A stretch of DNA of 64,000 nucleotides, taken from assembly GCA_976551045.1 (NCBI GenBank), contig CDPCPM010000180.1, positions 1 through 64,000 on the forward strand, read 5' to 3'. Below, piece by piece: positions 12,960-60,880 of the stretch. Position 1 is the stretch's first letter; each line of letters begins with the position of its first letter. The position numbers and the translations under genes are program-made. Source of the stretch: Glaucostegus cemiculus. Its lineage: Eukaryota. Below the pieces are notes generated by a model. The model ran no database searches. It was not told the origin of the DNA and saw nothing but the letters and a program-made list of their open reading frames with translations.

Positions 12960-13172
12960 TAGAACATAGAACATTACAGCACAATACAGGCCCTTCGGCC
13001 CATGATATTGTGTCGACATTTTATCCTGCTCTAAGATCGATCTAACCCTTCCCTCCCACATAGCCCTCTATTACTCTATCATTCATGTGCCTATCTAAGA
13101 GTCTCTTAAATGTCTCTAAAGTATCTGCCTCCACCACCTCTTACGGCAGTGCATTCCATGCACCCACCACTT
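12960..13172 (-). mobile_element. CR1 3' end fragment
   Basis: tagaacatagaac tail plus acaggcccttcggccca terminal motif and gcattccatgcacccaccac (VVGAWNAL on the minus strand). Confidence 0.8.
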
Positions 13173-13365
13173 TAAATTAAAAGCTAAGCCTCCAACATTC
13201 AGGAATAGCATAATCAAATTGAATTGAATTATTAGAATATGTAGAGTGTTTTTCTGAAGTCATATGTTATAACTATCCAAGCAAAACCCTAATCTTAAAA
13301 ACATGCCTTTTTTGAATAAGCTCGTTTTTCAATATTAACATTTCCAATAGTCTCTATCATTATGG

Positions 13366-13650
13366 CTTTAGGCTTTAAAGTAATGGGTGGGAAGTTCAAG
13401 GGAGATAGCAGAGGAAGGTTTTTTACCCTGAGAGTGGTTGGGGCATGGAATGCGTTGCCTGGGGTGGTGGTGGAGGCGGGTACATTGTTCAAATTCAAGA
13501 GATTGCTTGATAAGCAGATGGAGGAATTTAAAATAGAGGGATATGGGTGAGGTAGAGGTTAGGTAGTCTTAGGTGAGGTTTAAAGGTCAGCACAACATTG
13601 TGGGCTGAAGGGCCTGTATTGTGCTGTACTGTTCTATGATTCTATGATTA
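13366..13650 (+). mobile_element. CR1 3' end fragment (same subfamily as 33449-34527)
   Basis: GFKVMGGKFKGDSRGRFFTLRVVGAWNALPGVVVEAG; tail ttctatgattctatga. Confidence 0.9.
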
Positions 13651-17079: not shown

Positions 17080-19080
17080 TTATTAGTTCATGTCCTATCA
17101 TGTTCGAACCCCTTCAGCCAGTCTTCTGGCAGTGCCATGCCACTGAAAACAGTCCTTATCAAACTTGCAAATAACTAAACTATCTCTATTTGGCCCTTGC
17201 AAACCTGTTTCCTATCTTTCAGATGGTTGGCTCAACCTCTTCAAAGACATATTCCTTATCTGAGCAGGATTGCCCCTGTTTAGTTCCTATGCTTTTGTTA
17301 TTTAGCTGTAGTCAGGAATCTCTTGCAGTGGCTGCACTTCTCATTCCTACGAATTGCTTTTGAGGTTTTCAAAGGATCTATCCTTGGCCGTCTCTGTTTC
17401 TTATGTAAATGCAGTTGTTTGCCAATATTATAGCCTGCTCTGATCATTGCTAACCATCTATCTCAACAAAGTATGTTGGCCTTCATTGCAAGGGGATTGA
17501 GTACATCAACAAGAATGTGTTGCTGCAGTTGTATACAGCCTTGGTGAGACCCTATCTGGAGCTTTGTGTGCAGTTTTGGTCTCTTTATCTGATGAAGAAT
17601 ATTCTTGCATGGAGTGCAACAAAGGCCTCAACTGGCAGGACCGACTTATGAGGAGAGATTGGGTCAATTTTACCTGTATATACTGGAGTTGAAAGTTTTC
17701 AGAGGAGATCTTATAGAAGCCTATAAAATTCTATTAGGACAGAACAGGCAAGATGCAGAGAGGATATTCCTGATGGCAGGGGACTTGAGAACTAGGGGTC
17801 ACAACCTAGCTATCTGGGATCTGCCATCTAGAACCGGGACCAGGAGAAATCTTTTCTTCCAGACTGCAGTGAACCTCTGGCCTTCTCTACTGCTGAAGGC
17901 AGTGGAGACCAGGGCCTTGAGAATATTCAAGAAGAACTCTGTCCCCATAGCCATGGGGACAGATTTCTCCATCTCCTCCTTCGATTATCCATCCATCTCC
18001 TTCGATATGTTCAGCAATTTGGCCTCAGCAGCCCTCTGTGGTAGCTAATTCCTTAGCTTCACCGTCCTCTGTGAAGAAGTTTTTACACATTTGGGTTCCA
18101 AATTTCTAGCCCTTAACCTGATACTGTGACCAACGTTCTGGTCTCCTTAGCCAGGGAAAAGGTCTCCTCGCATCCAGTCTGTCTAGCCCTGTCAAAGTTT
18201 GTAATTTTCAGTTTAGTCCCCTCTCATTCTTCTAAAATCTAGTGAATACAAACTTAGTCAACCTATTCTGTCCTCATACAGCAGCTCCACCATCACAGGA
18301 AATGTCTGTTGAACCTTCATTGTTTTCTACCAATGACAAGATACATCCTTTCATCTGTCACATTTCCTATAATGTAAAAGGACTCCATTTGGTATTTCCC
18401 TGTAACTCTTCTCAATCTAACAATTGTACGTTGCCTTTCTGTTTATTCTACCAAAGTGGATAACTTCACAATTATCTTTATCAGCCATGTTTTTGCCTAC
18501 TCTCTCAAACTGTCTAAGTTTCCTTGAAATCTCTTTGCATTCTCATCACAATTCACAATCCCAGTTGTCTGGAAAAAAAAACAAAGTTGGATTCCTTTCA
18601 TTCATTGACAGTCCCCAGCTCTACCTCATTATTTTGCTGTCAACCCCTCCATTGATTAGTCTGTTTGACAATTCAGTATTGGCTTAGCAGAAATTTCCTC
18701 CAGTTAAGTATTGGGAAAGCCAAAACCCTTGGTTTTAATGTAGCTGCCTACTCTGCTCTCTAGCTGCCAGTTCTGTTTTTCATTGTGACCGTTTGCTGAG
18801 GTTGAATCAGACTTTTCTTAACCTCAGTTTAGCTTACCATTTTGGTGAACAGCTGAGCCTTTGACCCCACATCTTCTCTAAACCCAAGATTACCATTTCT
18901 ACCTCTGCATCATATGATGCTGCCTGTTACTGAGGTCATGTCACTATTATTCATGCATTCAAGAATACCAGGACTCTCCTTTTCAGCATTTCATATTGCA
19001 TCCTTCAAAATTTTGAGCTCAGTTGAAGCTTTGCTCATATCCTAATTCTCAAGTTCTGTTCACCCATCATCATGACTTTT
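17080..19080 (+). mobile_element. Old L2-like LINE remnant containing two oppositely oriented CR1 fragments (about 17465-17935 + and 18005-18560 -)
   Basis: L2-like STETAL.K..ND remnant (LKTVLIKLANN) and aaggatctatccttggcc; CR1 ORF 17605-18048 RGDLIEAYKIL...RTRGHNL. Confidence 0.6.
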
Positions 19081-20040: not shown

Positions 20041-21184
20041 CGGGCAAAAAATCTATTCTGTTCTGGGTAAAATCTAACAAACTCAATTGATTGTGGACTG
20101 AATAAACAATAAAATCTTTCCCATATACAAGCAGCTGTTCTTGCCATTCCTTCTCAATTGTTAAGTACAATAATTTACAGTAATTTATACCTGTGCTCAG
20201 CAAAATACTAATTGTCTACTCTCCTGATGATTTGCATATTGATCAAGACGGCTTCCCTGGGCAATAGTTGTAGCTTAGCTGTTTGGGATGGTTGATGACT
20301 TTAAAGTTACTTCAGAAGTAAAAAGCTTTTATTCTCCTTGTGAAATAGAACTTGCAGGACTAATCCTTTCAGGTACCTGGCATGCTGTGATTTTGCACAG
20401 TTGTCTTATATGAGGGGTATGAGAAGCATTATTCACCTACAGGCATGTGATTTGGTTTCCTGTAGTTTGAACACACACGGCCTTTTGTGTGTGTTGCCAA
20501 GTTTACCTGAGAATTGGGGCGGAAAACTACAGTGCTTCAGCCTGTTGCAACTTTATCAGTGTTAGCTAGCATGGGATATCAACCTTTTCCACCAAGATTT
20601 CTTCTTCGTTCTCAACTGTAAAATCAAGTGTCATCTTCCTTGCATTGCAGTACAGAGGGTATCCTCCTCATCCTGGGCAAGGTGAAAGTACATCCAATAT
20701 TTGGTTGAGCATTTGGACAAATCTTTAGGTGAATTTTACATTTCTGAAAGGAAATAGCAGCTTTCAGCTGTTGAAACATCAAATCCCTCAGGCAGAAGTT
20801 CCGGCGACAGTAGTATCAGCCACTACATTTTGTCACTGAATGCTGTCGCAAGATTTTCTTATAACTTTTGCATCCTGTCAAAGCTTAGATTATGCAGGCT
20901 GGGGCCTTGGTTGTTGCTGAGACCCCAATGAAGAGAATGGCCAGAGAGATCAGCTCTCTTCATGCAGATACAATGAGTGTTAGTATGCAGAGACCCTAGA
21001 TGGTGACTTTAGACAGCAGGCCAGTTTCAATAAGATTTGGCTGAATTTATGTTGTCTCTTTCCAGTGCAACAAATCGACCTTACGAATGAGTCTGGCTCT
21101 TGTATCTTCTAACTTGCAATGCAATAAAATTTAGCATACTTGGGTAAAGCAGTTGTACCAGGATTTCTGATGGCTATTGTGTAT

Positions 21185-22009
21185 TGTTACGAAGTAGCTT
21201 ACTATAGGCAAATATCCCTTTAAGATGGGACATTGCGTGTGTGTGCCACGTATTACATCAACAGAAGATGGGACTAACGTGATGAGGTCACTGCAAGAAA
21301 GAAAAAGATAAGAGAGAGAGACAGACAGATGGAAAGAAAGAAGAAGGAGAGATGGCAGCCTGTTTTGTTTCTGTCGATGGATGAAGGACAGTAACTGTGT
21401 TTGTCACTAAAATCCGGGCATGGATTTCTGGAGTGGTCCAGTGGAGTTCACTTTGTCAGTAACCTGTAGAAGGACACAGGTGTTTGCGTGAACAACCACA
21501 TTTTGGATGCTCTTCAGAGTGGCAGATACAGTGGAACAAAGTGACGGAATTCACTTTGCTGCTAACCTGTAGAAGAACACAGGTATTTGCATGGACAGTA
21601 AACATACAAGGAGTTTTCAGGGTGAGAAAGTCACAACTGAGTAAGCCCTGAAGTGTCGTTTGAGTTTCGAGTGGAACATTCGGATTTTGTGATTCCTCTC
21701 TAATCTCTCTCTATATCTATGTTTTGTCTTCGGTGGACAGTGCTTGTGAAGAAGCCTTTATTCGTGTCATCTTACGGCTTACTGAACTGAACTTTAAGAA
21801 CTAATTCCTGGACTTGGAGTTTAGGAACTTGCCGCACACACACAACGAGTAGTTTTGGGTTTATAGTTTAAGATTTTAACATTATATTGTGTACTAATAT
21901 ACTAACTTTTTATTCTTATTTTGCATATTATCGGATGTAGTTATTAATAAAGTAGTTTTAACACTGAAGTATGACTTGGTGTGCTTCTTTTGTTGCTGGT
22001 TTCGTAACA
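21185..22009 (+). repeat. LTR copy 1 (825 bp, TG...CA)
   Basis: Ends TGTTACGAA...TTCGTAACA (9-bp terminal inverted repeat); AATAAA at 21946-21951; internal ~102-bp-period direct repeat (about 21444 and 21546); followed by the PBS. Confidence 0.9.
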
Positions 22010-22013
22010 AAAT

Positions 22014-22031
22014 TGGGGGCTCGTCCGGGAT
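22014..22031 (+). promoter_or_regulatory. Primer binding site, tRNA-Pro
   Basis: TGGGGGCTCGTCCGGGAT, the canonical 18-nt complement of the tRNA-Pro 3' end, 4 nt downstream of the LTR CA. Confidence 0.95.
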
Positions 22032-22181
22032 CTTCCCAAGATTAATGAGTGTCGTTCTGGGATCCAGTCCAAAGATTTGGTTTGCAGTCAAACTTAAGAC
22101 TGGTACTGGAGGTCTGAGTTTGGACATTGGGGTTGGTCCAATACATTTTCTTAATTGGCGTGTGTGTGGAAACCAGTAGCA

Positions 22182-22583
22182 ATGGAAGCGTTTATGAAAA
22201 AACCCACACCAAGTGGATTGCAGAGAATGAAGAAGTCTGAATTATTAATTCTTGCAACAGAGCTAAAACTTACAACAGTAACACAATCTATGAAGAAAGC
22301 AGATATCCAGAGAATAATAGCTGGCCATATGAAATTTGACTGTTCTGTTTTGAAGAGAAAGCAAGAAAAGGGAGCTGTGCCAACTTCCTGTTGTCAAGTT
22401 ATTAAACCCAGAAATAAAAGAGGTTTTGGGGAGGTAGTGAAAGATCAGTCCTTGCTAGAGATGAAGACTGAAGAGCTGGATGAGGTGAGGGAGGAATTCC
22501 GTTCATATCTATCAGAAGATTCCAGGTATTTTGTTACGAAACCAGCAACAAAAGAAGCACACCAAGTCATACTTCAGTGTTAA
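22182..22583 (+). pseudogene. Internally deleted gag-like ORF (133 aa) running into the inverted LTR
   Basis: gcaATGG start. MEAFMKKPTPSGLQRMKKSELLILATELKL...KKADIQRIIA resembles N-termini of fish Gmr1-like Gypsy Gag and is fused to a half zinc knuckle GHMKFDC. Stop codon lies inside LTR copy 2. Confidence 0.7.
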
Positions 22584-23356
22584 AACTACTTTATTAATAA
22601 CTACATCCGATAATATGCAAAATAAGAATAAAAAGTTAGTATATTAGTACACAATATAATGTTAAAATCTTAAACTATAAACCCAAAACTACTCGTTGTG
22701 TGTGTGCGGCAAGTTCCTAAACTCCAAGTCCAGGAATTAGTTCTTAAAGTTCAGTTCAGTAAGCCGTAAGATGACACGAATAAAGGCTTCTTCACAAGCA
22801 CTGTCCACCGAAGACAAAACATAGATATAGAGAGAGATTAGAGAGGAATCACAAAATCCGAATGTTCCACTCGAAACTCAAACGACACTTCAGGGCTTAC
22901 TCAGTTGTGACTTTCTCACCCTGAAAACTCCTTGTATGTTTACTGTCCATGCAAATACCTGTGTTCTTCTACAGGTTAGCAGCAAAGTGAATTCCGTCAC
23001 TTTGTTCCACTGTATCTGCCACTCTGAAGAGCATCCAAAATGTGGTTGTTCACGCAAACACCTGTGTCCTTCTACAGGTTACTGACAAAGTGAACTCCAC
23101 TGGACCACTCCAGAAATCCATGCCCGGATTTTAGTGACAAACACAGTTACTGTCCTTCATCCATCGACAGAAACAAAACAGGCTGCCATCTCTCCTTCTT
23201 CTTTCTTTCCATCTGTCTGTCTCTCTCTCTTATCTTTTTCTTTCTTGCAGTGACCTCATCACGTTAGTCCCATCTTCTGTTGATGTAATACGTGGCACAC
23301 ACACGCAATGTCCCATCTTAAAGGGATATTTGCCTATAGTAAGCTACTTCGTAACA
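22532..23356 (-). repeat. LTR copy 2, inverted (825 bp)
   Basis: Reverse complement of 21185-22009; same length, and no mismatch in the segments compared by eye. Confidence 0.92.
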
Positions 23357-23799
23357 GTATCCAGATTTGTTTTCACTTTGATTCTTCCAGGAATTTGAAG
23401 AGAGAAATATTGGAGTTAAAATGTTAAAGAAAATAAGACTTTTTTTATCTCTGAGGTCATATAATAATTTTTAGGATATTTGTGATACATTTACACTTCA
23501 AGCTTGCAACATGTTTAAACTTCTTATGATAGAATTTTGACTTTGCTTTAAACATCTACCCAAACTGGTTCCTAAATTAAGTGGTTACTAGATTTCTTCC
23601 TTCGGATGCCTTGCTTGTTTCAGTATTGGACAAACCCCTAATTCTAGAGTCTGGGAATATTTATACTTTGACAATGTAATCAGTGCAAGGCTGTGTGTTC
23701 AGCTACATCTATGCAAATAGAGATTTCATGTGGTTGAGCCAGACTGTTTAATGTTGGGTTTGATGCAGGGCTGAGTTTTTAAAAGAAAAATTCTCTTCA

Positions 23800-24450: not shown

Positions 24451-24894
24451 CTTGAATGCATATTTTGTGTCTTCAAGGAATTGATAAAAATATCTCTGAA
24501 TAATTATGGTGCAAATATTCATGTTCACCATTAAGTAAGGGAACTTTTTTTTGGGGTGGTCCTAATTTTGTGCTCTTTTGCAGTCTTTTTCAGGCCACTC
24601 GCATTATTCATGCTTGTCAATATCTTATAAAAGTGTGTCTATATTTTCTTTCATCAAACCCCATATCTTAACACTACCACTGTTATTCTATTCCGAACCC
24701 TTCATACTACTTCAGTGCCTCTATTGAAAGTAGTCTGAGAAATTGTGCCTATGGGCAACGTTCTGGTGCTGCAGTTGTGGGTTCAGTTGTGGGTGTTGAA
24801 CATTATGAAAATTTCTTTTGTAAAGTGAATGTTGACAGATAGTTTGAGTGAGGTTTGATTTTTGAATCTTGACCAACTGGTACAATGTGCTCGG

Positions 24895-26036
24895 AGATTG
24901 GTGTGTAAGATTAGGGCTCACGCAATTGGAGGGAGGATATTAGCATGGATAGAAAACTGGTTGGCAGATAGGAAGCAAAGAGTAGGGGTGAATGGATGTT
25001 TCTCAGAGTGGCAGGCCGTGACTAGTGGGGTGCCACAGGGCTCTGTTCTGGGACCTCAGCTTTTTACGATTTATGTTAATGATTTAGAGGAAGGCATTGA
25101 GAATAGCATTAGCAAGTTTGCTGATGATACAAAGTTGGGTGGGAGTGCGACAAGTGTAGAGAAAGTAAGGAAAATTCAAAGGGACTTGGATAGGTTGGGT
25201 GAATGGGCGGAAACTTGGCAGATGAAGTTTAATGTGGAAAAGTGTGAGGTTATTCACTTTGGGAACAGGAACGGGAAGGCGAATTATTTTCTGAATGGTG
25301 TGGAGCTTGGCAAGGGGGAAAAACAAAGGGATTTAGGAGTATGTGTGCATCATTCACTGAAAGTGAATGAGCAAGTACAGCAGGCAGTAGCGAAGGCAAA
25401 TGGAATGTTGGCCTGTATTACAAGGGGAATTGAGTACAAAAGCAAAGAGATTCTTCTGCATTTGTACAGGGCCCTGGTGAGACCACTGCTGGAGTATTGT
25501 GTACAGTTTTGGTCTCCGGGATTAAGGAAGGATATCCTGGCTATAGAGGGTGTGCAGTGTGGGTTCACAAGGTTAATTCCGGGGATGTCAGGACTGACTT
25601 ATGCTGAGAGGTTGGAGAGACTGGGTTTGTACACGCTAGAATTGAGAAGATTAAGAGGGGATCTGATTGAGACTTATAGGATTATTAAAGGTTTGGACAG
25701 GATAGAGGTAGGATGTATGTTCCAGATGTTGGGGAAATCCAGGACCAGAGGGCATGAGCTAAGAATTAAGGGTATGCCATTTAGGACAGAAGTGAGGAGA
25801 AACTTCTTCTCACAAAGGGTGGTAAATCTGTGGAATGCACTGCCTCAGAGGGCAGTGGAGGCCAATACACTGGGCACTTTCAAGGAAGAGTTAGATAGGT
25901 TTCTTATAGATAGGGGTATCAGGGGATATGGGGACAAGGCAGGAACAGGTTATTGATCAGCCATGATCTCAAAATGGCGGAGCAGACTCGAAGGGCCGAA
26001 AGGTCTACTTCTGCTCCTATTGTCTATTGTCTATTG
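24895..26036 (+). mobile_element. Young 5'-truncated CR1 LINE with uninterrupted RT C-terminal frame
   Basis: ORF 24862-25956: [50 protein letters not shown]; 3' UTR ends in (ctattgt)n. Confidence 0.95.
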
Positions 26037-27779: not shown

Positions 27780-28810
27780 ATAACAACAAAAGCAGAATGC
27801 TGGGAGGACTGAGTGAGTCAGTCAGCATCTGTGGAGGCAAAAAGGTGCAAATCTACATTTTGGGTCAAGACCCTACATCAGAACTAGAACATAGAACAGA
27901 ACAGACCCTTTGGCCCACAATGTTGAGCCGACATAGCTATTCCCTCCTACCTACAGAATGCCCATGTCCATCTATTTTTCTCTTATTCATGTGCCCATCC
28001 AAGCCCCTCTTAAAAGCCCCCATGAATTTGCCTCCACCACCCTATCAGGCAATGCATTCCAGGCATCCAGCACTCTCTCAGTAAAAAACATTACTCTCAC
28101 GTCTGTTCTGAACTTACCCACTCTCACCTTAAATGCATGCAACTGAGAGGGAAGAGGAAAGATTGCCAGTTTATAGCAACGGTGGGGAGGGGGGAGGGAA
28201 ATAGATACAAGATATTTATTAGTCACATGTACATCAAAACACACAGTGAGATGCCCCTTTTTGCATTACTGAGAGTATTCTGGGTGGCAGGCCGCAAGTG
28301 TTGCCACTCTTCCGGCGCCAACATTGCATGCCCACAGCTCCTAACCTGTATGTCTTTGGAATGTGGGAGGAAACTGGAGCACCCGGAGGAAACCCACGCA
28401 GACACACAGGGAGAACGTACAAACTCCTTACAGACAGCGGCCAGAATTGAACCCGGGTTGCTGGCGCTGTAGTACCGTCACGCTAACTGCTATGCTACTG
28501 TGCTGCCTATAAAGGCTGGGAGGTGATAGGTGGAACTAGATAGGGAGAGGATGATTGGCAGATGGAACCTGGTGAAGGGAGAAGATGGGAAAGAGGAATG
28601 GAGGGAGAAGAAAACTTCTGAATGTGTGTGGGAGGAGAACACTGGGGATGTGGGTGACCTACTGGGTCGTAAGCAGAATATGAGATGTTCTTCCAATTTG
28701 TGTTTGGCCTCTCCATAGCAATTGAGAAGGCTGAGGACAGATAGCTTGGTGTGGGAGTGGGTAGGAGAATTAAAGTGACGTGCAACTGGAAGCTCGAGAT
28801 GGCCGTAGTA
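27780..28810 (-). mobile_element. Penelope-like 3' region interrupted by a CR1 tail (about 27885-28142) and a SINE (28203-28507)
   Basis: Minus ORF ELPVARHFNSPTHSHTKLSVLSLL...KHKLEEHLIFCL; terminal decayed hammerhead-like ctgatgt agggtcttgaccc aaaa. Confidence 0.75.
28203..28507 (-). mobile_element. V-SINE-type SINE family A, full length
   Basis: High similarity to 2712-3015 over the whole length. Confidence 0.9.
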
Positions 28811-28834
28811 TACAGAGCACAGGTGTTCCAAAAA

Positions 28835-29680
28835 CAGCCACCCCACCAGCCTCCATATCTTCCGTATCATCCTCTGCCATTTCCGCCAGCTCCAGCATGA
28901 TCCCAGCACCAGTCACATGTTCCCTACCTCTCTACTTTCTGCAAGTGCTGCTCTCTTCAGGACAAATACACCCACCCTCCCCCTCCCCAGGCACTTTCCC
29001 CTGCACCTGTCCCTTCATTTCTCCCCTCATCACCATCCAGGGACCTAAATAACCATTCCAGGTGAGGCAGAGGTTCAACCGTGCCTCTTCCTACCTGGAC
29101 AACTGCACTCAGTGCTCACAAAGTGACCTCCTCTATGTTGGTGAAACCAAGTGTAGACAAGGTGACCATATTGTAATGGCCATCTTGAATTTCCAGTTGC
29201 ATGTCCTTTTAACTCTCCTTCCACTCCCACATCATCCTGTCTCTCCTTGGCCTTTTCCATTGCAACGGAGAGGCCAAACACAAGTTGGAAGAACAATGTT
29301 TCACATTATGCTCGGGTAACAATAGTATGAATGTCGGATTTTTCAATCTCAGGTAACCTACACCCCTGGTGCTCTCCTCCCACACACACTCACCTGTTCA
29401 TCTAGTTTTCTTCTCCCTTTGTTCAGCTTTCATAGAAACATAGAGAAACTAGAGCACAATTCAGGCCCTTCAGCCCACAAAGCTGTGCCGAACATGTCCC
29501 TACCCTAGAAATTACTAGATTTACCCATAGCTCTCTATTTTAATAGAAACATAGAACCCATCCCATCTCCCCACCTGGTTCCATCTGCCCATCGTTCCCT
29601 CCCCATTGGGTTCCTCCTATCAGCCTTTATCCCACCCCAGCCTTCTGATTATTGTTCCAGATTCCAGCATCTACAATTAG
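28835..29680 (+). mobile_element. Penelope-like GIY-YIG fragment, opposite in orientation to the adjacent copy; CR1 tail nested at about 29432-29555
   Basis: TIQGPK*PFQVRQRF...CTQCSQSDLLYVGETK. Confidence 0.75.
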
Positions 29681-33448: not shown

Positions 33449-34527
33449 ATAGAACAGTACAGCACAATACAGGCCCTTCGGCCCACAATGTTGTACCAAC
33501 CTTTAAACCACGTCTAAGACTATCTAACCCCTTCCTCTCACATATCCCTTTATTTTATATTCCTCCATATGTTTATCTAGTAATCTCTTGAAGTTGACCA
33601 ATGTACCTGCTTCCACCACCACCCCAGGCAGCACATTCCATGCCCCAACCACTTTCTGGGTAAAAAACCTTCCTCTGATATCTCCCTTGATCTTCCCACC
33701 CATTAATTTAAAGCCATGCCCTGTTGTATTGAGCATTGTTGCCCTGGGAAAGAGGCACTGGCTGTCCACTCTATCTATTCCTGTCAATATTTTGTGCACC
33801 TCTATCATGTCTCCTCTCATCCTCCTCCTCTCCAAAGAGTAAAGCCCTAGCTCCCTTAGTCTCTCCTCATAATGCATACTCTCTAAATCAGGCAGCATCC
33901 TGGTAAATTTCCTCTGCATCCTTTCCAATGCTTCCACATCCTTCCTATAATGAGGCGACCAGAACTGGACACAGTACTCTAAGTGTGGTCTAACCAGAGT
34001 TTTGTAGAGCTGCATCATTACCTCGCGGATCTTAAACTCGATCCCTCAACTTATGAAAGCTAACACCCCATAAGCTTTCTTAACTACCCTATCCACTTGT
34101 GAGGCAACTTTCAGGGATCTGAGGCTATGGACCCCCAGATTCCTCTGCTCTTCCACACTACCCAGAATCCTGCCATTAACTTTGTACTCTGCCTTGGAGT
34201 TTGCCTTTCCAAAGTGTACCACCTCACATTTCTCCAGATTGAACTCCATCTGCCACTTCTCAGCCCAGCTCTGCATCCTATCAATGTCCCCCTGCAATCT
34301 TCGACAATCCTCTACACTATCCACAACACCGCCAACCTTTGTGTCATCTGCAAACTTGCCAACCCACCCTTCTACCCCCTTCATCCAAGTCGTTAATAAA
34401 AATCATGAAAAGCAGAGGTCCCAGAACTGATCCTTGTGGGGCGCTGCTAGTCACAGCCCTCCAGCCTGAATGCACTCCCTCCACCACAACCCTCTGCTTT
34501 CTACAGACAAGCCAATTCTGAATCCAA
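33449..34527 (-). mobile_element. 5'-truncated CR1 LINE, with few disablements
   Basis: ORFs 34344-34694, 34046-34384 and 33524-34018: [49 protein letters not shown]. Confidence 0.95.
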
Positions 34528-35849
34528 ATTAATTGAAAAATGCTGCCATCACTGAGGTAGAAGGAGAATGTGAGAGACACTGAGAACCAGGACCGATGCT
34601 GGGGAGACAGTTCAATCTTTACCCTGGCAGCACATGGATGAGGGATCCAATATCTGAGGGAATGCTGTGGACCCTGTGTAGCTCCAGGTGACAAAAGCTA
34701 GCCACAGTTCAGGAAAACTTTCTGATATACAGTCCAGGGTACGTGGCATCTCCTTTGTTTTTGCATCCTTCAAAGAATTCCCAGGAAATCGAATTATTCA
34801 TTGGATTTTATGGTATCTGCCATGGTAGATGAAAGGGCGTGATTGAAGAAGCTTGGATTATTTTTCTTAAGAGGACATTAAAGAATTGTCTAGTGGAACT
34901 ATTCAAAATTATGAGGGATTTTAGTAGATCAACTGAGAAGATGCCATTTTATATGATAAAAAAGGTGGTGACCAGGAATCATGGATTTATAATTTTCAGT
35001 AGAAGAATTGGGACAGAAATTGCTTAACATGATTTAGTGTGTCACCCACTAAGGTTATTGTTTGCAACAGGAAATGTACCTTTTTCAAAGGTTTCACCGA
35101 TTTTCAACCCCTTCTAACTGGGGGGGGAGAAAATGACTAGTGGCAGAATAAAGCAATGTGTAAGCACTTTTTATATTAAGTTCACCACTTACGTCAGTAA
35201 AGAAGTACTACTTATTTCCAAAAATGTTACCTTAATGGAAGTGGCATGTGTATTGTAGATATACTGGGGCAAATCATCTGCCTGGGTGCCTGCACCACTG
35301 TTAGGTTTGAGTCAACAGTAGGAAGTTCCGCTTGTGTCACTTGTTGGCAGCACCCATATACCAGTGGACACCTCATGGAGTTCAACAGGAACACAGATTT
35401 CCAGATGTTCCCAGTTCTCAGGCACAGAAATATACATGTTCAGTTAGCACAAGTAGAGCAATATCATAGGAAGCAGAACTTCAACAGATGACAAAGCCTT
35501 TCCTGCATGTATTTGCCTGTAAGAGGCCATGCACTTTTTCATGTTGAGGTGCTTGTGCCGGCTTCTGAGTCGCAAACCGCTCCCACAAGTGCAGGTGACT
35601 GGTAATCCAAGGGCATGGAAGATTTATCCCAATATAATAAAATATTGAAGAAAGACTTAAAAGTGGGAACATTTTTGCTCTGTAGCGAATTGTGATAGGT
35701 AATAAGAATCAAAATATAATAAATGTAATTAAAATAGCTATTGTACATCTTCAGTTTCAGAAGCTTTTTCACTTTGTTGATTATAACAGGGAAAATATGT
35801 ACCTGTGACAGTCTATACCATGTCAGCATCCATTTACAAATGTTCAGAT

Positions 35850-42500: not shown

Positions 42501-45379
42501 AAATATTTGAACTTTTCTTTCACAGTTACAGGTATAGATTAACGCATTGGAGTTACTCCTACTAATCTGTCATTTAAAAAAAAATCCTTACATAAAATTA
42601 TTACGGCTAAGGAATCTGTTCAGCCCATAAGAGTCCGTGCTATAAATTGAACAGAGTGTTTTTGGAAATCTGCAGCTTATTTAAATTTTTCTAATAGCAC
42701 TTTTATGTCTGATTAAGAAAAGTACCACCAGAAAAAGTAATATGGTTATTGACTCTCTATATATTCTAGACTTAACCATCAATATGGAGGTTTTTTTTAA
42801 AATATATATTTAATAAAAGAAAAGGCTTTAAAGGGGAAAGGCAGCAATCCATGACTATACTTGATTTATTTTGATATTTGTGCTGAAAAATCTCGTATAC
42901 AAGAACTACAAGATGATTGATGCAGCTTGTGGTGAATAGCAGAAAGTAACTAAACAAAGACATTTAATAGCTAAATATCTAACTTGGATATGTTTGTAAG
43001 CAATTAGCAAAAAAAACCTGCTAACATTAGCATAATGGTCAATTATTACTTAAAATTAAATAAAAATAAGTAAAATACAACAGCTATAATGAGACCTATA
43101 TTCCCTCTTAATTGATTGAAAGCCTTCCATTTATGGGTAATGGCCAAAAGTCATGAAAGAAAATTGAAACTACTTTTACTACAAATCAATATGGAAGGTT
43201 TCAGAAAAGGGGCATATTCTAATGTACTTGAAAATAAACAAAAAGTCATTGCTTGTTTAATCGCATTAATGGGATTATGCTCAGTGCAGTAGAGAATGTA
43301 ATATGATACGAGCCCACCCTTAACACAACCAGTCCTAAATTGCAGAACACATCTGCAGTGGATGGTGTGACACTTGGGTGTTCTGTTCAAGAGGAAGTAA
43401 ACTTAATTACCAGTGGTGGCCAGGGATTAAAAGGTATTGGTGGGGCACAATCCTATTGCAAATGAAACCACTCTTTCACATCGAGTGCCATAAACACAAC
43501 ACGTATAGATTACCTCTTTCCCATTTTCCTTCATGGAACATCAATTCATTATTTTCCATCGGCTGGTGGCTCCTGCTCCACTCCACTCCACTAAATGTTC
43601 GGGCTGGTTTCCCACCTCAGCTGACGTGTCATGTGCTACTGGTCTGCTGCTTTTGTTTCCACAGAGAGCAGCCAGTAGGTAAGTGTTACTTTAATTCTAG
43701 AACTTCCAAATGTGAACTATGGCCCAATGTCTACTTTTGTTTTAAGAGGGTAGGGAGAGTGACCGACTGTCACCTATACAGTCAAAATCAGCTCTTCTGG
43801 TATTTTTACTCTGTTGCTATTACAGGCACAGTTTGGAGTTTGTGGGTCATACACTACTGGCCCCTAATGAGTAGCTGCCACTGTTAATTTAAATTGGGCT
43901 CTTATACATTTGGAAGCCTGATTTAGAATTTAACTGAGCCCGTTGGGCTTCCCAAAGCTGGCAGTGAGATAGGAAGTTCAAATTCCAGTCTCTATTTAAA
44001 AAGCAGTTTTGTACTTTACAAGTACGAAGAGTCGAAATTCTCTTCACTGGCCCACAAACAAACTGCCTGCTAATCCTTCTGCTAACCCTGGCTGCTCTTC
44101 TCTGCCACGATCTGTCCTTTTTCTAACTTCGGCAGAACTTCTGCCTCCCTGGAATATTTTTCCCCCACTCTCTGGCTAGTTTTGTGTTCCCCACATGTAA
44201 ACATTAGAGCCGATAACTCTTTTTCCTCTTTCTGCTGCCTGTAGGTTCTGCTGTTCCCTTTCTTGCTATTTTCCCTCTGAACATTTTCCCTTTCAGGTAA
44301 GGGGTGATTCATGACGCCTTGTAATTTAGAGAAGATAAACATCAGCCCCTGTCGATCTGTAGTGATACAATTGCTTTGCTGAGTGTACTTCTTAATTTAA
44401 TGTTGAAATTTAATTTGCCCCCCAATCTCCTATATAGCTGAACCATCTGAATCCACCACAAGGCAAGATTTATTTTGAAGGCAAGGAATTAATGATACTT
44501 CCTTGTTCTAAATGGAAAATGTATTCTCAACTAGCATATTCTGAACCCTTATCAGTTTCACAGACAACACCTGAAAAATGTTTGTTGCTGGTTGCTTGAC
44601 GAGATTGGCTTGACTATCTACTCAGCCTTACAAATGGTCCCAGTGGGACATCTGGTTCATTCAGGCAGGTTAGGTTTTTTTTGCAAAGGAACCCTTTTCT
44701 TCCATTGCTGTCTTAAGCCACCTAATGTAGGAAACAGCAATCCAGTGTTTGTTACAAGATTTTGCTTGGTATCTATTAAGCCAGGCTTAGCATTTCAGTA
44801 CAATAAGTGAAACTATTTTAATAGTGATTTTTTTCCACTAAATTCTAGGTGAAGTTGAGAGCCAATTCACCAGTGTTATTACCCTGATTTTCCCACCTCT
44901 TCCCCCATGTCCTAATTTGGTGATAGTGCGCGAATATTTTTTGAAAAATAAAATAAGACTATTTGCACACATGTAGCTTTAGAGGCAGTACAAAGTGGCA
45001 TGTCAGTCAATAAAATATTTTAAAGATTGCATACCTATATTCTAACAAATATTTTGCATATAATGTCATAAGCTGAGTTTTACAGTATTTAACTCACCAG
45101 ATTTGTGAGGTAAATGCTGTTTTGGGCCACAAATAAAAAGTGTTGTTCGTCCTTTTGCACCAAGTTTACTCTTAAGCAGTCAGCTCAGTTCATCCTCTAC
45201 CATGTTGCTTGTCCTTTGCCCAGACCTTTTAAAATATCAGCAATGCTGCTGTGCCTAAGAAGAGGGAAGGTATTTCTGCTGGTCGACAACAAAAACAATA
45301 GCACTTATCTGTAATTTGAAGCCAGATCTTTCAGTGTTGAAGTTAGGAAATGCAGTAGGTGGCAGAAATTTAGAGAAAG

Positions 45380-45845
45380 TTGCCAGGAGAATTCCAAACA
45401 CAAACTGGAGGAACAGCACCTCATTTTCCATCTTGGAACCTTGCAGCCTAACGGTATGAATATTGGATTCTCCCACTTTAGGTAATCCCCACCCATTTCC
45501 CCATTCCCCACCAACACCCCCCCTCCCCACCATGCTTCTTCTCTTCTTCCCTTCCCTAGCCTCTTTTTTTTCTTGCATTTTACCCATGTCTTGGTGGATC
45601 TGCTCTCCCTTCCTCCCCCATACCTGCCTATTGCTGTCTCTTGCCTGCATCTACCTATCACCACCCTGTGTCCACCCCACCTCCTCTCTTTTGTCCACCT
45701 GTCACTGCTCTGCTTTTCCCTCCTATATATTGGGCTTCCTCTTTTCCTATCTTCAGTCCTGAAGACGGGTCCTGACATGAAACGTTGACCACCTGCTTTT
45801 CTCCACGAATGCTGAGTTCCTCCAGCATCATTGTGTTTTTCTTTT
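45380..45845 (+). mobile_element. Penelope-like 3' end with hammerhead-like motif
   Basis: KLEEQHLIFHLGTLQPNGMNIGFS, a pyrimidine-rich UTR, then cagtc CTGAAGA cgggtcctgacat GAAAC gtt gacca. Confidence 0.85.
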
Positions 45846-46207
45846 GGCAGAAATTTAGAACTGGTTTCCACAGACTGCAGGATATTTAAAGATATGGGGG
45901 CAAGGACAAATGTGTAGAGTTGCATCCCAGATCAGTCATGATCTTGCTGAATGGCAGAATGGGCTCAAGAGGCTAAATAGTCTAATCCTGTTTCTTTCTT
46001 ATGTTTTCTAGCTCGACACAAGACACATCCAGTCTGCCAGTCTGGCTAGTTGGTGGGTGGGTAACCTGTTGAGATAATTCAAAACAGCTACTGCTTTTAA
46101 ATTTGGAAGGGGCCCTACAGGAAATCCATATTGCTAGGGTTGACATCCCAACCATGTTATTCTCCGATTCTGCGTATTCACCTAATAAAAGAGATTGTAA
46201 ATGCATA

Positions 46208-59549: not shown

Positions 59550-60880
59550 AGTCCACTGACATCTTCTACAAACCCACTGATGCCCACAGCTACCTTGATT
59601 ACAGCTCCTCCCACCCTGTCTCTTGCAAGGACACGATCCCTTTCTCTCAATTTCTCTACCTCCGCCACATCTGCTCCCATGGTGAGGTTTCCACTCCAGG
59701 ACATCAGAGATGTCCAACTTCTTTACTAACCGTGTCTTCTCTCCTACTGTGATCAAGAGAGCTCACACCCACATCTCTGCTATTTCCTGCACCTCTGCTC
59801 TCACCCCCACCCCTCCCAGTCCCAACAGGGATAGGGTCCCCCTTGTCCTCACGTTTCATCCCACCAGTCTACGTATCCAACACATCGTTCTCCGCCCCTT
59901 CCGCCATCTCCAACGGGACCCTACTACCAAGCATATCTTCCCCGCCCCACCCCTTTCTGCCTCTCGCATGGACCGCTCTCTCTGTGACTCCATGGTTCAC
60001 TCCTCCCCCTCCCATCCTGATTCCACTTCGGGAACTTTCCACTGCCCCCGCCATAGCTGTAACACTTGCCCCTACACCATTTCCATCACCTCCATCCAGG
60101 GACCCAAACAGTCCTTTCAGGTGAGGCAGAGATTTACCTGCACCACCCGTAATATCATCTACTGCATTCAGTGCCCCAAGTGAGGCCTCCTCTACATCGG
60201 CGAGACCAAACGTAGATCAGGTGACCGCTTCGTAGAACACCTACACTACGTCTGTAACCGCGATCTGCAACTCCCCGTTGCCAGTCACTTCAACTCCCCC
60301 TCCCCCTCCATCACTGATATGTCAGTCCTCGGCCTCCTCCACTGCCAGGAGAAATCCAAACGCAAACTGAAAGAACAACTCATGTTCCATCTTGGAACCT
60401 TGCAGCCTAATGGCATGAACATTGAATTCTTCCACTTTATGTCAACCAACACCCCTACCCATCCCCACCTTGCCTCTTCTTCCCTTTCCGGGCCTATCTC
60501 TTTTTTTCCTCCGCCAATTTTTTCCTCCTTCTCCTTTTCCTCTCCTCCCCTCCCCCCATGCCGCGGGTCCCCATATCTTTGACCCATCCCCCAGTGGATT
60601 TACTCTCTCCCTCTTACCCTGTACCTGCCTATTACTGTCTCTTACCAGCATCTACCTATCACCACCCTGCCTCCCCTCTTTTGTCCAGCTATCACGGCTC
60701 TGTTGCTCTGGTGGTAATATTTGGCTTTCCCTTTTCCTGTCTTCAGTCCAGAAGAAGGGTCCTGACCCAAAATGTTGACCACCTGCTTTTCTCCATGGAT
60801 GGTGCCTGGCCTGCTGAGTTCGTCCAGCATCTTTTGTTTTTCCATCTAAATTCCAGCATCTGCAGTCCTTCGTTTCTCTA
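59550..60880 (+). mobile_element. Penelope-like element: RT thumb, GIY-YIG endonuclease and 3' terminus (5'-truncated, disabled)
   Basis: TDIFYKPTDAHSYLDYSSSHP..CKDTIPFSQF; RVPLVLTFHP; FTCTTRNIIYCIQCPK*GLLYIGETKRRSGDRFVEH; decayed hammerhead at 60744-60781. Confidence 0.9.

Follow-up and report, generated by a model that had tools for sequence, protein, structure and literature searches.

A Gypsy-derived unit with inverted long terminal repeats in the genome of Glaucostegus cemiculus

The 64,000-nt stretch of Glaucostegus cemiculus DNA analyzed here (assembly GCA_976551045.1, contig CDPCPM010000180.1, positions 1 to 64,000; hereafter the window) carries at 21185-23356 a retrotransposon-derived unit that has the outline of a DNA transposon. 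Two identical long terminal repeats (LTRs), judged from homology to belong to a Gmr1-like Ty3/Gypsy element, face each other in inverted orientation around a short interior, and the whole is flanked by the 4-bp duplication GTAT. The structure is real, unusual and mechanistically informative, and most likely represents a single recent accident. On balance, and with considerable room for doubt, we favor its origin from one very recent round of aberrant reverse transcription of the parent element, the product of which integrase would have inserted as a one-off dead-end copy.

Architecture of the inverted-LTR unit

The two arms of the unit (21185-22013 and 22528-23356) are exact reverse complements of 829 bp each around a 514-bp spacer, and their alignment gave 0/829 mismatches, which bears out the equal-length, GTAT-flanked inverted repeat described in the initial annotation. 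The repeat extends by 0 bases both outward and inward, and GTAT lies directly outside each arm (Table 1). Two random 4-mers of the window agree with a probability of 0.005, so the duplication is unlikely to be a chance match, barring an integrase preference for such sites. The arm pair is the longest, and the sole pair at 100%, among the 25 longest of the 56 inverted pairs listed for the 64-kb window, the runner-up measuring 267 nt at 89%. Another copy of the LTR, a solo LTR or a second copy of the spacer was found nowhere in the window, the empty site made by joining the flanks has no long match elsewhere in it, and its letters include no N. Close-set, diverged inverted pairs of short repeats also occur at 12965-13638, 28686-29295 and 543-1139 (I8, I16, I13 and I5; 71-84% complementary); these are ordinary old repeat pairs, in contrast to the perfect LTR pair.

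Each arm had initially been taken for a true LTR over its full 829 bp. This holds for 825 bp, which start TGTTACGAA and finish TTCGTAACA to form a 9-bp terminal repeat, whereas the last 4 nt are a linker lying between the terminal CA and the primer binding site (PBS). The TG...CA ends, the 9-bp end repeats and the sense AATAAA at 21946 were all confirmed by reading of the sequence, and AATAAA together with the PBS fixes the direction of the LTR. We take the PBS to be of the tRNA-Pro type. No sequence matching it was found in PMC7472051 and PMC5210030. A PBS behind the 5' LTR and a short target-site duplication at TG...CA ends are shared with canonical LTR retrotransposons. As had been noted from the start, both outward ends are U3 ends, and no purine tract that would correspond to a polypurine tract (PPT) lies 5' of either LTR.

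The AAAT linker is present in both arms, so that arm 2 consists of the LTR plus the linker. Its inner end coincides exactly with the PBS boundary, the point where tRNA-primed synthesis starts. Equality of the 4 nt beyond CA in arm 2 with the linker has a composition-based chance of 0.008. Processing of LTR ends at CA is established. What arm 2 carries as a linker on its inner side is either the unprocessed end of a reverse transcript or a microhomology at just that place, and as an unprocessed U5 end it is a pointer to how the molecule arose. The observed/expected ratio of CpG is 0.58 in the LTR vs 0.25 in the window, which together with the lack of mismatches suggests that the insertion is young, although an arm copied from the other would be identical too.

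The gag-like open reading frame (ORF) that had been reported behind arm 1 is real (22182-22583, 133 codons), but it is not a single gag: it joins two pieces from distant parts of Gag and continues into the inverted LTR. In protein P0008 (XP_051866833.1) the pieces correspond to residues 3-51 (at 22182-22328) and 431-491 (at 22323-22517), and the domains of that protein lie at 289-379 (SCAN) and 422-437 (zf-CCHC). A first deletion has removed about 380 codons, including the SCAN capsid and most of the zinc knuckle, and it keeps the frame, so that the 133-codon ORF is still open. The join sits on a Gly-His found at both sides, which presumably reflects microhomology at the DNA level. No LTR-derived match was found inside the spacer, and Pfam gave the spacer ORF a weak Rho_N match alone (E 0.1). 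The N-terminal piece of the ORF also resembles Rho_N/SAP/HeH folds weakly (ESM Atlas scores of 0.83 or less, which were not used). A transcript across the spacer is predicted to fold into a long perfect stem closing right at the PBS, with -320 kcal/mol for a 751-nt test piece (z -20.8 vs 20 shuffles).

Table 1. Features of the inverted-LTR unit and its flanks (positions in the window)
Feature	Position	Strand	Basis
Left target-site duplication copy, GTAT	21181..21184	+	Flank reading; chance equality 0.005
LTR 1, 825 bp, TG...CA, U3 end outward, 9-bp terminal inverted repeat	21185..22009	+	Arm comparison, end reading
Two 52-bp internal repeats in presumed U3, 83% alike (21443-21494 and 21546-21597)	21443..21597	+	Repeat search
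AATAAA, presumed polyadenylation signal, sense	21946..21951	+	Motif reading
4-nt linker AAAT between terminal CA and PBS; in the arm, outside the LTR	22010..22013	+	Arm comparison; counterpart at L003
PBS, presumed tRNA-Pro type, first bases of hairpin loop	22014..22031	+	Similar stretch at L003:6782
Putative untranslated leader	22032..22181	+	Between PBS and first ATG of the ORF
N-terminal part of Gag, 49 codons	22182..22328	+	46.9% identity to P0008 residues 3-51, E 1.7e-8
Gag piece, second half of zinc knuckle to just before protease	22323..22518	+	53.8% to P0008 residues 431-491, E 2.5e-14
9 nt from the end of Gag homology to arm 2, reading Ile-Pro-Gly, probably from the protease-integrase interval	22519..22527	+	Peptide-block fit
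Inverted 4-nt linker copy (presumed unprocessed U5 end), stopping exactly at PBS boundary	22528..22531	-	Inward extension 0; composition chance 0.008
LTR 2, inverted, same as LTR 1, without a preceding PPT, U3 end outward	22532..23356	-	Arm comparison
Right target-site duplication copy, GTAT	23357..23360	+	Flank reading

Parent family and its relatives

An ORF search by HMMER over 1.84 billion representative proteins matched the spacer ORF to 6 proteins, all of them ordinary Gag pieces and none better than 1.3e-11. With residues 215-537 of P0008 as the query, 1122 longer relatives were obtained, 120 of which were listed and used; the nearest among these 120 is P0009, with 54.5% over 66 aa to the spacer (tblastn), and the nearest named relatives are proteins of the sawfish Pristis pectinata, which would by itself point to a cartilaginous fish as the probable host. 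The Gag pieces of the unit are 47-55% identical to Pristis pectinata proteins with SCAN, a zinc knuckle and integrase (IN) before reverse transcriptase (RT). P0009 has the domain order SCAN, integrase, reverse transcriptase and RNase H (RH), and the order protease (PR)-IN-RT-RH is seen in P0009 and P0012; the window copy is without pol. Gmr1-like elements have the PR-IN-RT-RH order (bioRxiv 2025.03.03.638093), and Gmr families occur in fish (PMC11117352). The Gag matches and the SCAN-IN-RT-RH order of the relatives thus make the unit a derivative of a Gmr1-like Gypsy element. The Gypsy origin claimed in the initial annotation is upheld and can be refined, the parent being, as far as Gag homology and the domain order of relatives speak, a Gmr1-like Ty3/Gypsy LTR retrotransposon.

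A scan of a collection of prokaryotic genomes that used 17 aligned relatives gave four loci (L001-L004), apparently eukaryotic DNA inside bacterial and archaeal bins. The LTRs of L003 are direct and 96.9% alike over the overlapping 382 bp, with a purine tract adjoining the TG of the 3' LTR; its 5' LTR is followed by a 2-nt linker and then by a PBS-like stretch with 15/18 bases as in the window PBS, and its integrated 3' LTR stops at CA with no linker behind it (the linker evidence comes from this one locus). A purine tract precedes TGT in 3/4 loci (L001, L003 and L004), L002 being without a clear one. The window unit therefore resembles a canonical Gmr1-like copy in its TG...CA LTR, its short linker and a PBS similar to that of L003, and differs from it in having inverted LTRs and no PPT, in lacking the capsid, probably the protease and all of IN-RT-RH, and in a second LTR that keeps the linker, presumably unprocessed, at its inner end.

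At L003 (6398-10262) the 5' LTR of the Gmr1-like element is truncated and the interior shortened, and the element's place in a 350-kb contig titled Denitrobaculum sp. metagenome-assembled genome (MAG) is likely caused by chimeric assembly. L001, L002 (Heimdallarchaeota MAG) and L004 (Breoghania MAG), which lie on short contigs, and the protein P0103 (named Campylobacter sp.) are animal-type Gmr1-like retrotransposons as well, and L004 has a 129-bp terminal overlap, as in a circular contig. Such elements in prokaryotic bins are most likely contamination, and they bear on claims of eukaryote-like genes there.

Possible routes to the inverted arrangement

In the sequence of events that we favor, a plus strand in the particle (U3-R-U5-PBS-gag) would have come to a halt directly downstream of the protease region, on a template with an internal deletion. 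The stalled strand would then have been met 3' to 3' by a second plus-strand strong-stop DNA without a PBS (U3-R-U5-linker), presumably a normal intermediate of Gypsy elements, the two either pairing through about five complementary bases (ATTTT/AAAAT) or being joined bluntly. Extension of each strand on the other would yield a duplex with two identical facing LTRs, one PBS and two U3 ends, which integrase may have taken to leave the 4-bp duplication; since both LTR ends share 9 bp, it could use two U3 ends. Arm 2 has the same extent, U3-R-U5 to the tRNA junction without a PBS, as a DNA known from yeast Ty3, in which, after tRNA removal, the second plus-strand strong-stop DNA ends at U5 without a PBS and a third round then displaces it (PMC5371799). 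In Ty3 this strong-stop DNA pairs with the minus strand through R-U5, which leads to direct LTRs, whereas in the window it would have been joined head-on to an internal position. A random fold-back point could have fallen at about 1340 positions, by our estimate, and arm 2 stops at the PBS boundary; the perfect identity of the arms fits their origin from one template.

Insertion as one unit by integrase, as initially proposed, is the simplest account of the TG...CA ends and the 4-bp duplication; it is likely but not proven, as the 9-bp end repeat would let a later host rearrangement give the same sequence. Since it lacks a PPT, pol and a correctly oriented 3' R, the unit should be unable to retrotranspose normally, and its minus-strand strong-stop DNA would find no correctly directed R to jump to. 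The window copy is most likely a dead end.

The inner junction gives a further indication of how the molecule was formed. Gag homology stops at Ser-Glu (22517), where the relatives continue into protease, and the 9 nt that follow, together with the first 5 nt of arm 2, fit a block behind the protease of the relatives. This block is present in 105/120 listed relatives in 42 distinct forms and lies 116-124 codons downstream (80 relatives with a measurable distance). All 10 matches of the Ile-Pro-Gly peptide type fall in it, and a random 9-mer at a fixed register equals the junction score with P 3e-4. In a whole-alignment scan of 29 relatives, kept from 42 long ones among the 120 listed, the block was the best site of the polyprotein (12.7 bits vs 4.8 for the next). 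A second deletion of about 120 codons with the protease is therefore probable, with ATTTT common to the internal sequence and the inverted U5 end, a reading to which we do no more than lean.

Several points weigh against this account. With correction for the whole polyprotein, 894/20000 random 9-mers score as well somewhere (P about 0.045), the nearest relative P0009 differs at the post-protease block, and a U3 stretch (21570-21588) resembles the inner junction at 15/19 positions (P 0.02, 5000 draws), with 3 mismatches within the 9 nt. The ATTTT microhomology is deduced from the proteins of other species rather than from parent DNA, and PBS-less strong-stop DNA is documented for yeast Ty3 and not for Gmr1-like elements, to which it would apply by analogy. 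The 9-bp end repeat, moreover, allows a post-insertion route to the same sequence. Among the mostly open-access papers covered, judged from titles, opening lines of abstracts or passages, none was found to describe an integrase-inserted Gypsy copy with inverted LTRs, so that the favored mechanism is without a precedent for integration of such a molecule. An internal repeat of U3 (21467-21485) also resembles the inner junction (13/19), and this likeness and that of 21570-21588 are probably due to chance. Templating of the 9 nt from U3 or the flanks was largely rejected, with no exact copy within 20-24.5 kb and a best match of 15/19, and is kept as a minor rival.

Later rearrangement of a direct-LTR copy in the host chromosome is unlikely in our judgment, although it is the rival that we take most seriously. 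A fork could have switched from the internal region to the opposite LTR 1 strand, copied backwards and returned via the 9-bp end repeat, or a second copy could have nested in reverse and become a solo LTR, with a deletion between two 9-bp ends removing the rest. The last 9 bases before the right GTAT are the same in either orientation, so that an older duplication would survive; identity is likewise expected of a copied arm, the internal region already has one sure and one probable deletion, and AAAAT occurs only twice in arm 1 and the spacer, leaving few landing sites for a switch. All this would take two or three events, however, and host repair has no preference for the exact PBS boundary; if a second copy had nested, the agreement of the 4 nt would be a coincidence of 0.008. 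The window shows no trace of pol, a PPT or a third LTR. Related arrangements were rejected: for a right flank continuing gag-protease, as around a nested solo LTR, tblastn with 5, then 120 relatives gave nothing outside the spacer at useful E-values; the bases inside arm 2 are not a PBS complement, as they would be in the inverted 5' LTR of a second copy; and an in-place flip of the 3' LTR predicts a PPT at the inner junction, where it is absent. An assembly artefact, in which a collapsed LTR was crossed the wrong way round or two separate loci were run together, seems to us improbable. A collapsed repeat would give perfect identity too, the family looks young by its CpG ratio, and the joined empty site has no long match elsewhere in the window that would show the flanks to be continuous. 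Against an artefact, the GTAT duplication would be a 0.005 coincidence, and the inner junction stops at a biologically exact point; a fold-back chimera would mirror the left flank, whereas the right flank differs, and the window is free of N.

Autointegration and a replicating family have equally slender prospects. In the former, a processed U5 end would attack its own internal DNA in reverse, and the product would then be inserted via two U3 ends. Inversion circles of this kind, with two LTRs separated by an inverted part and an LTR joined reversed to its own interior, are known and sometimes abundant in Ty1 and Arabidopsis SISYPHUS (PMC7197481), and, should the 9 nt derive from the post-protease stretch, ATTT might belong to the target. 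Integrase joins at CA, however, which makes the linker match of the next 4 nt a matter of chance (0.008), free U3 ends are lacking in an inversion circle, and the PPT, absent here, would stay attached to the U3 of the 3' LTR. The circles are described as extrachromosomal dead ends with a processed-end junction and with the PPT side kept (PMC7197481), whereas the window unit sits in a chromosome between the copies of a duplication and retains the linker. The initial annotation also raised a replicating non-autonomous family, which we regard as a faint prospect. The unit would then be copied or cut-and-pasted as an element with terminal inverted repeats (TIRs) by the family integrase or a Ginger-like transposase. 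The TIR geometry, TGTNR ends (TGTTA here) and 4-bp duplication are those of Ginger1 and Ginger2, for the former of which Bao et al. (2010) proposed that the TIRs perhaps came from two oppositely oriented LTRs around an integrase, as two separate insertions (PMC2836005). The identical arms would fit a recent move, and the internal part is short and multiply deleted, like that of non-autonomous families. Such ends and duplications are undiagnostic for Ginger since Gypsy LTRs share them, and the window unit, which looks like one molecule, has no transposase or integrase between its arms. Its 829-bp arms are three times the longest listed Ginger TIR (40-297 bp), and its empty-site 6-mer, TGTATC, matches neither the Ginger1 target CCGG/CCGT nor the Ginger2 target RTATAY (PMC2836005). 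The family is unsupported so far: there is no second copy in 64 kb, the route through RNA would lack a PPT and a direct R, and the chimeric ORF was not found in protein sets (exact look-up 0/3 forms; word search 0/217 longer and 0/5 near-length candidates), which is weak evidence because short repeat ORFs are seldom annotated. It is similarly doubtful that head-on plus-strand joining is a repeatable Gypsy route to integrase-ready two-U3 units, with the window unit one member of a multi-copy TIR-like family.

Known systems, surroundings and significance

TRIM, LARD and TR-GAG elements carry direct LTRs. Like the window unit, they are short, internally deleted derivatives with a PBS and a gag remnant, and they keep both PBS and PPT (PMC13570524), whereas here the LTRs are inverted and there is no PPT. 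DIRS1 likewise places inverted long terminal repeats around retroelement sequence, with non-identical arms, an internal complementary region and a tyrosine recombinase (PMC7192593); the window unit has neither such a region nor a recombinase, and it further differs in its identical arms, a spacer without a copy of the LTR end, a Gmr1-like Gag, a PBS and a duplication. GingerRoot elements have 6-bp duplications (PMC6839031) vs the 4 bp found here. By their definitions, the window unit is not DIRS, Ginger, TRIM or LARD. One paper calls an inverted LTR pair the classic structure of locust Gypsy-25 (PMC8786324).

The surroundings of the unit are old repeats. A fragment at 24859-25956 (+), stop-free over 365 codons, encodes a non-LTR reverse transcriptase (Pfam RVT_1, E 2e-15) that we take to be CR1/L2-like, with related fragments at 17596-18048 and 33524-34697. 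Broken ORFs at 59686-60582 (+) look to us like the C-terminus of a Penelope-like element, although a 165-aa piece of them had no Pfam match, and related pieces lie near 28490-29320 and at 45255-45931. A low-complexity, tandem-like repeat (family D1) occupies 13-486. No host exon or gene was recognized, with 0/144 stop-free pieces (picked from 986 unmasked pieces and further ORF lists) matching Pfam at E 0.001, and searches of the window and of the element against Rfam gave 0 matches each.

Hairpin-type loci can feed small-RNA silencing, maize Mu killer being an example. Transcription from either LTR of the window unit would yield a long perfect hairpin, so that the locus could, on the predicted fold, feed small-RNA silencing of its parent family. 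The arrangement also offers a signature for genome scans, namely an inverted LTR pair with a duplication and an inner arm stopping at the PBS boundary, and finders that seek LTRs as direct repeats would presumably miss such units. The unit shows the hypothetical opposite-LTR arrangement of Bao et al. (2010) in one molecule, minus the integrase gene that it would need. If a multi-copy family did exist, this would be an LTR retrotransposon caught in becoming DNA-transposon-shaped, as has been postulated for the way in which Ginger1 arose. Even alone, the unit would preserve in a chromosome an intermediate of reverse transcription that has been known mainly from particles of yeast, and it suggests that a Gypsy integrase may be able to integrate DNA with two U3 ends in the germ line of an animal.

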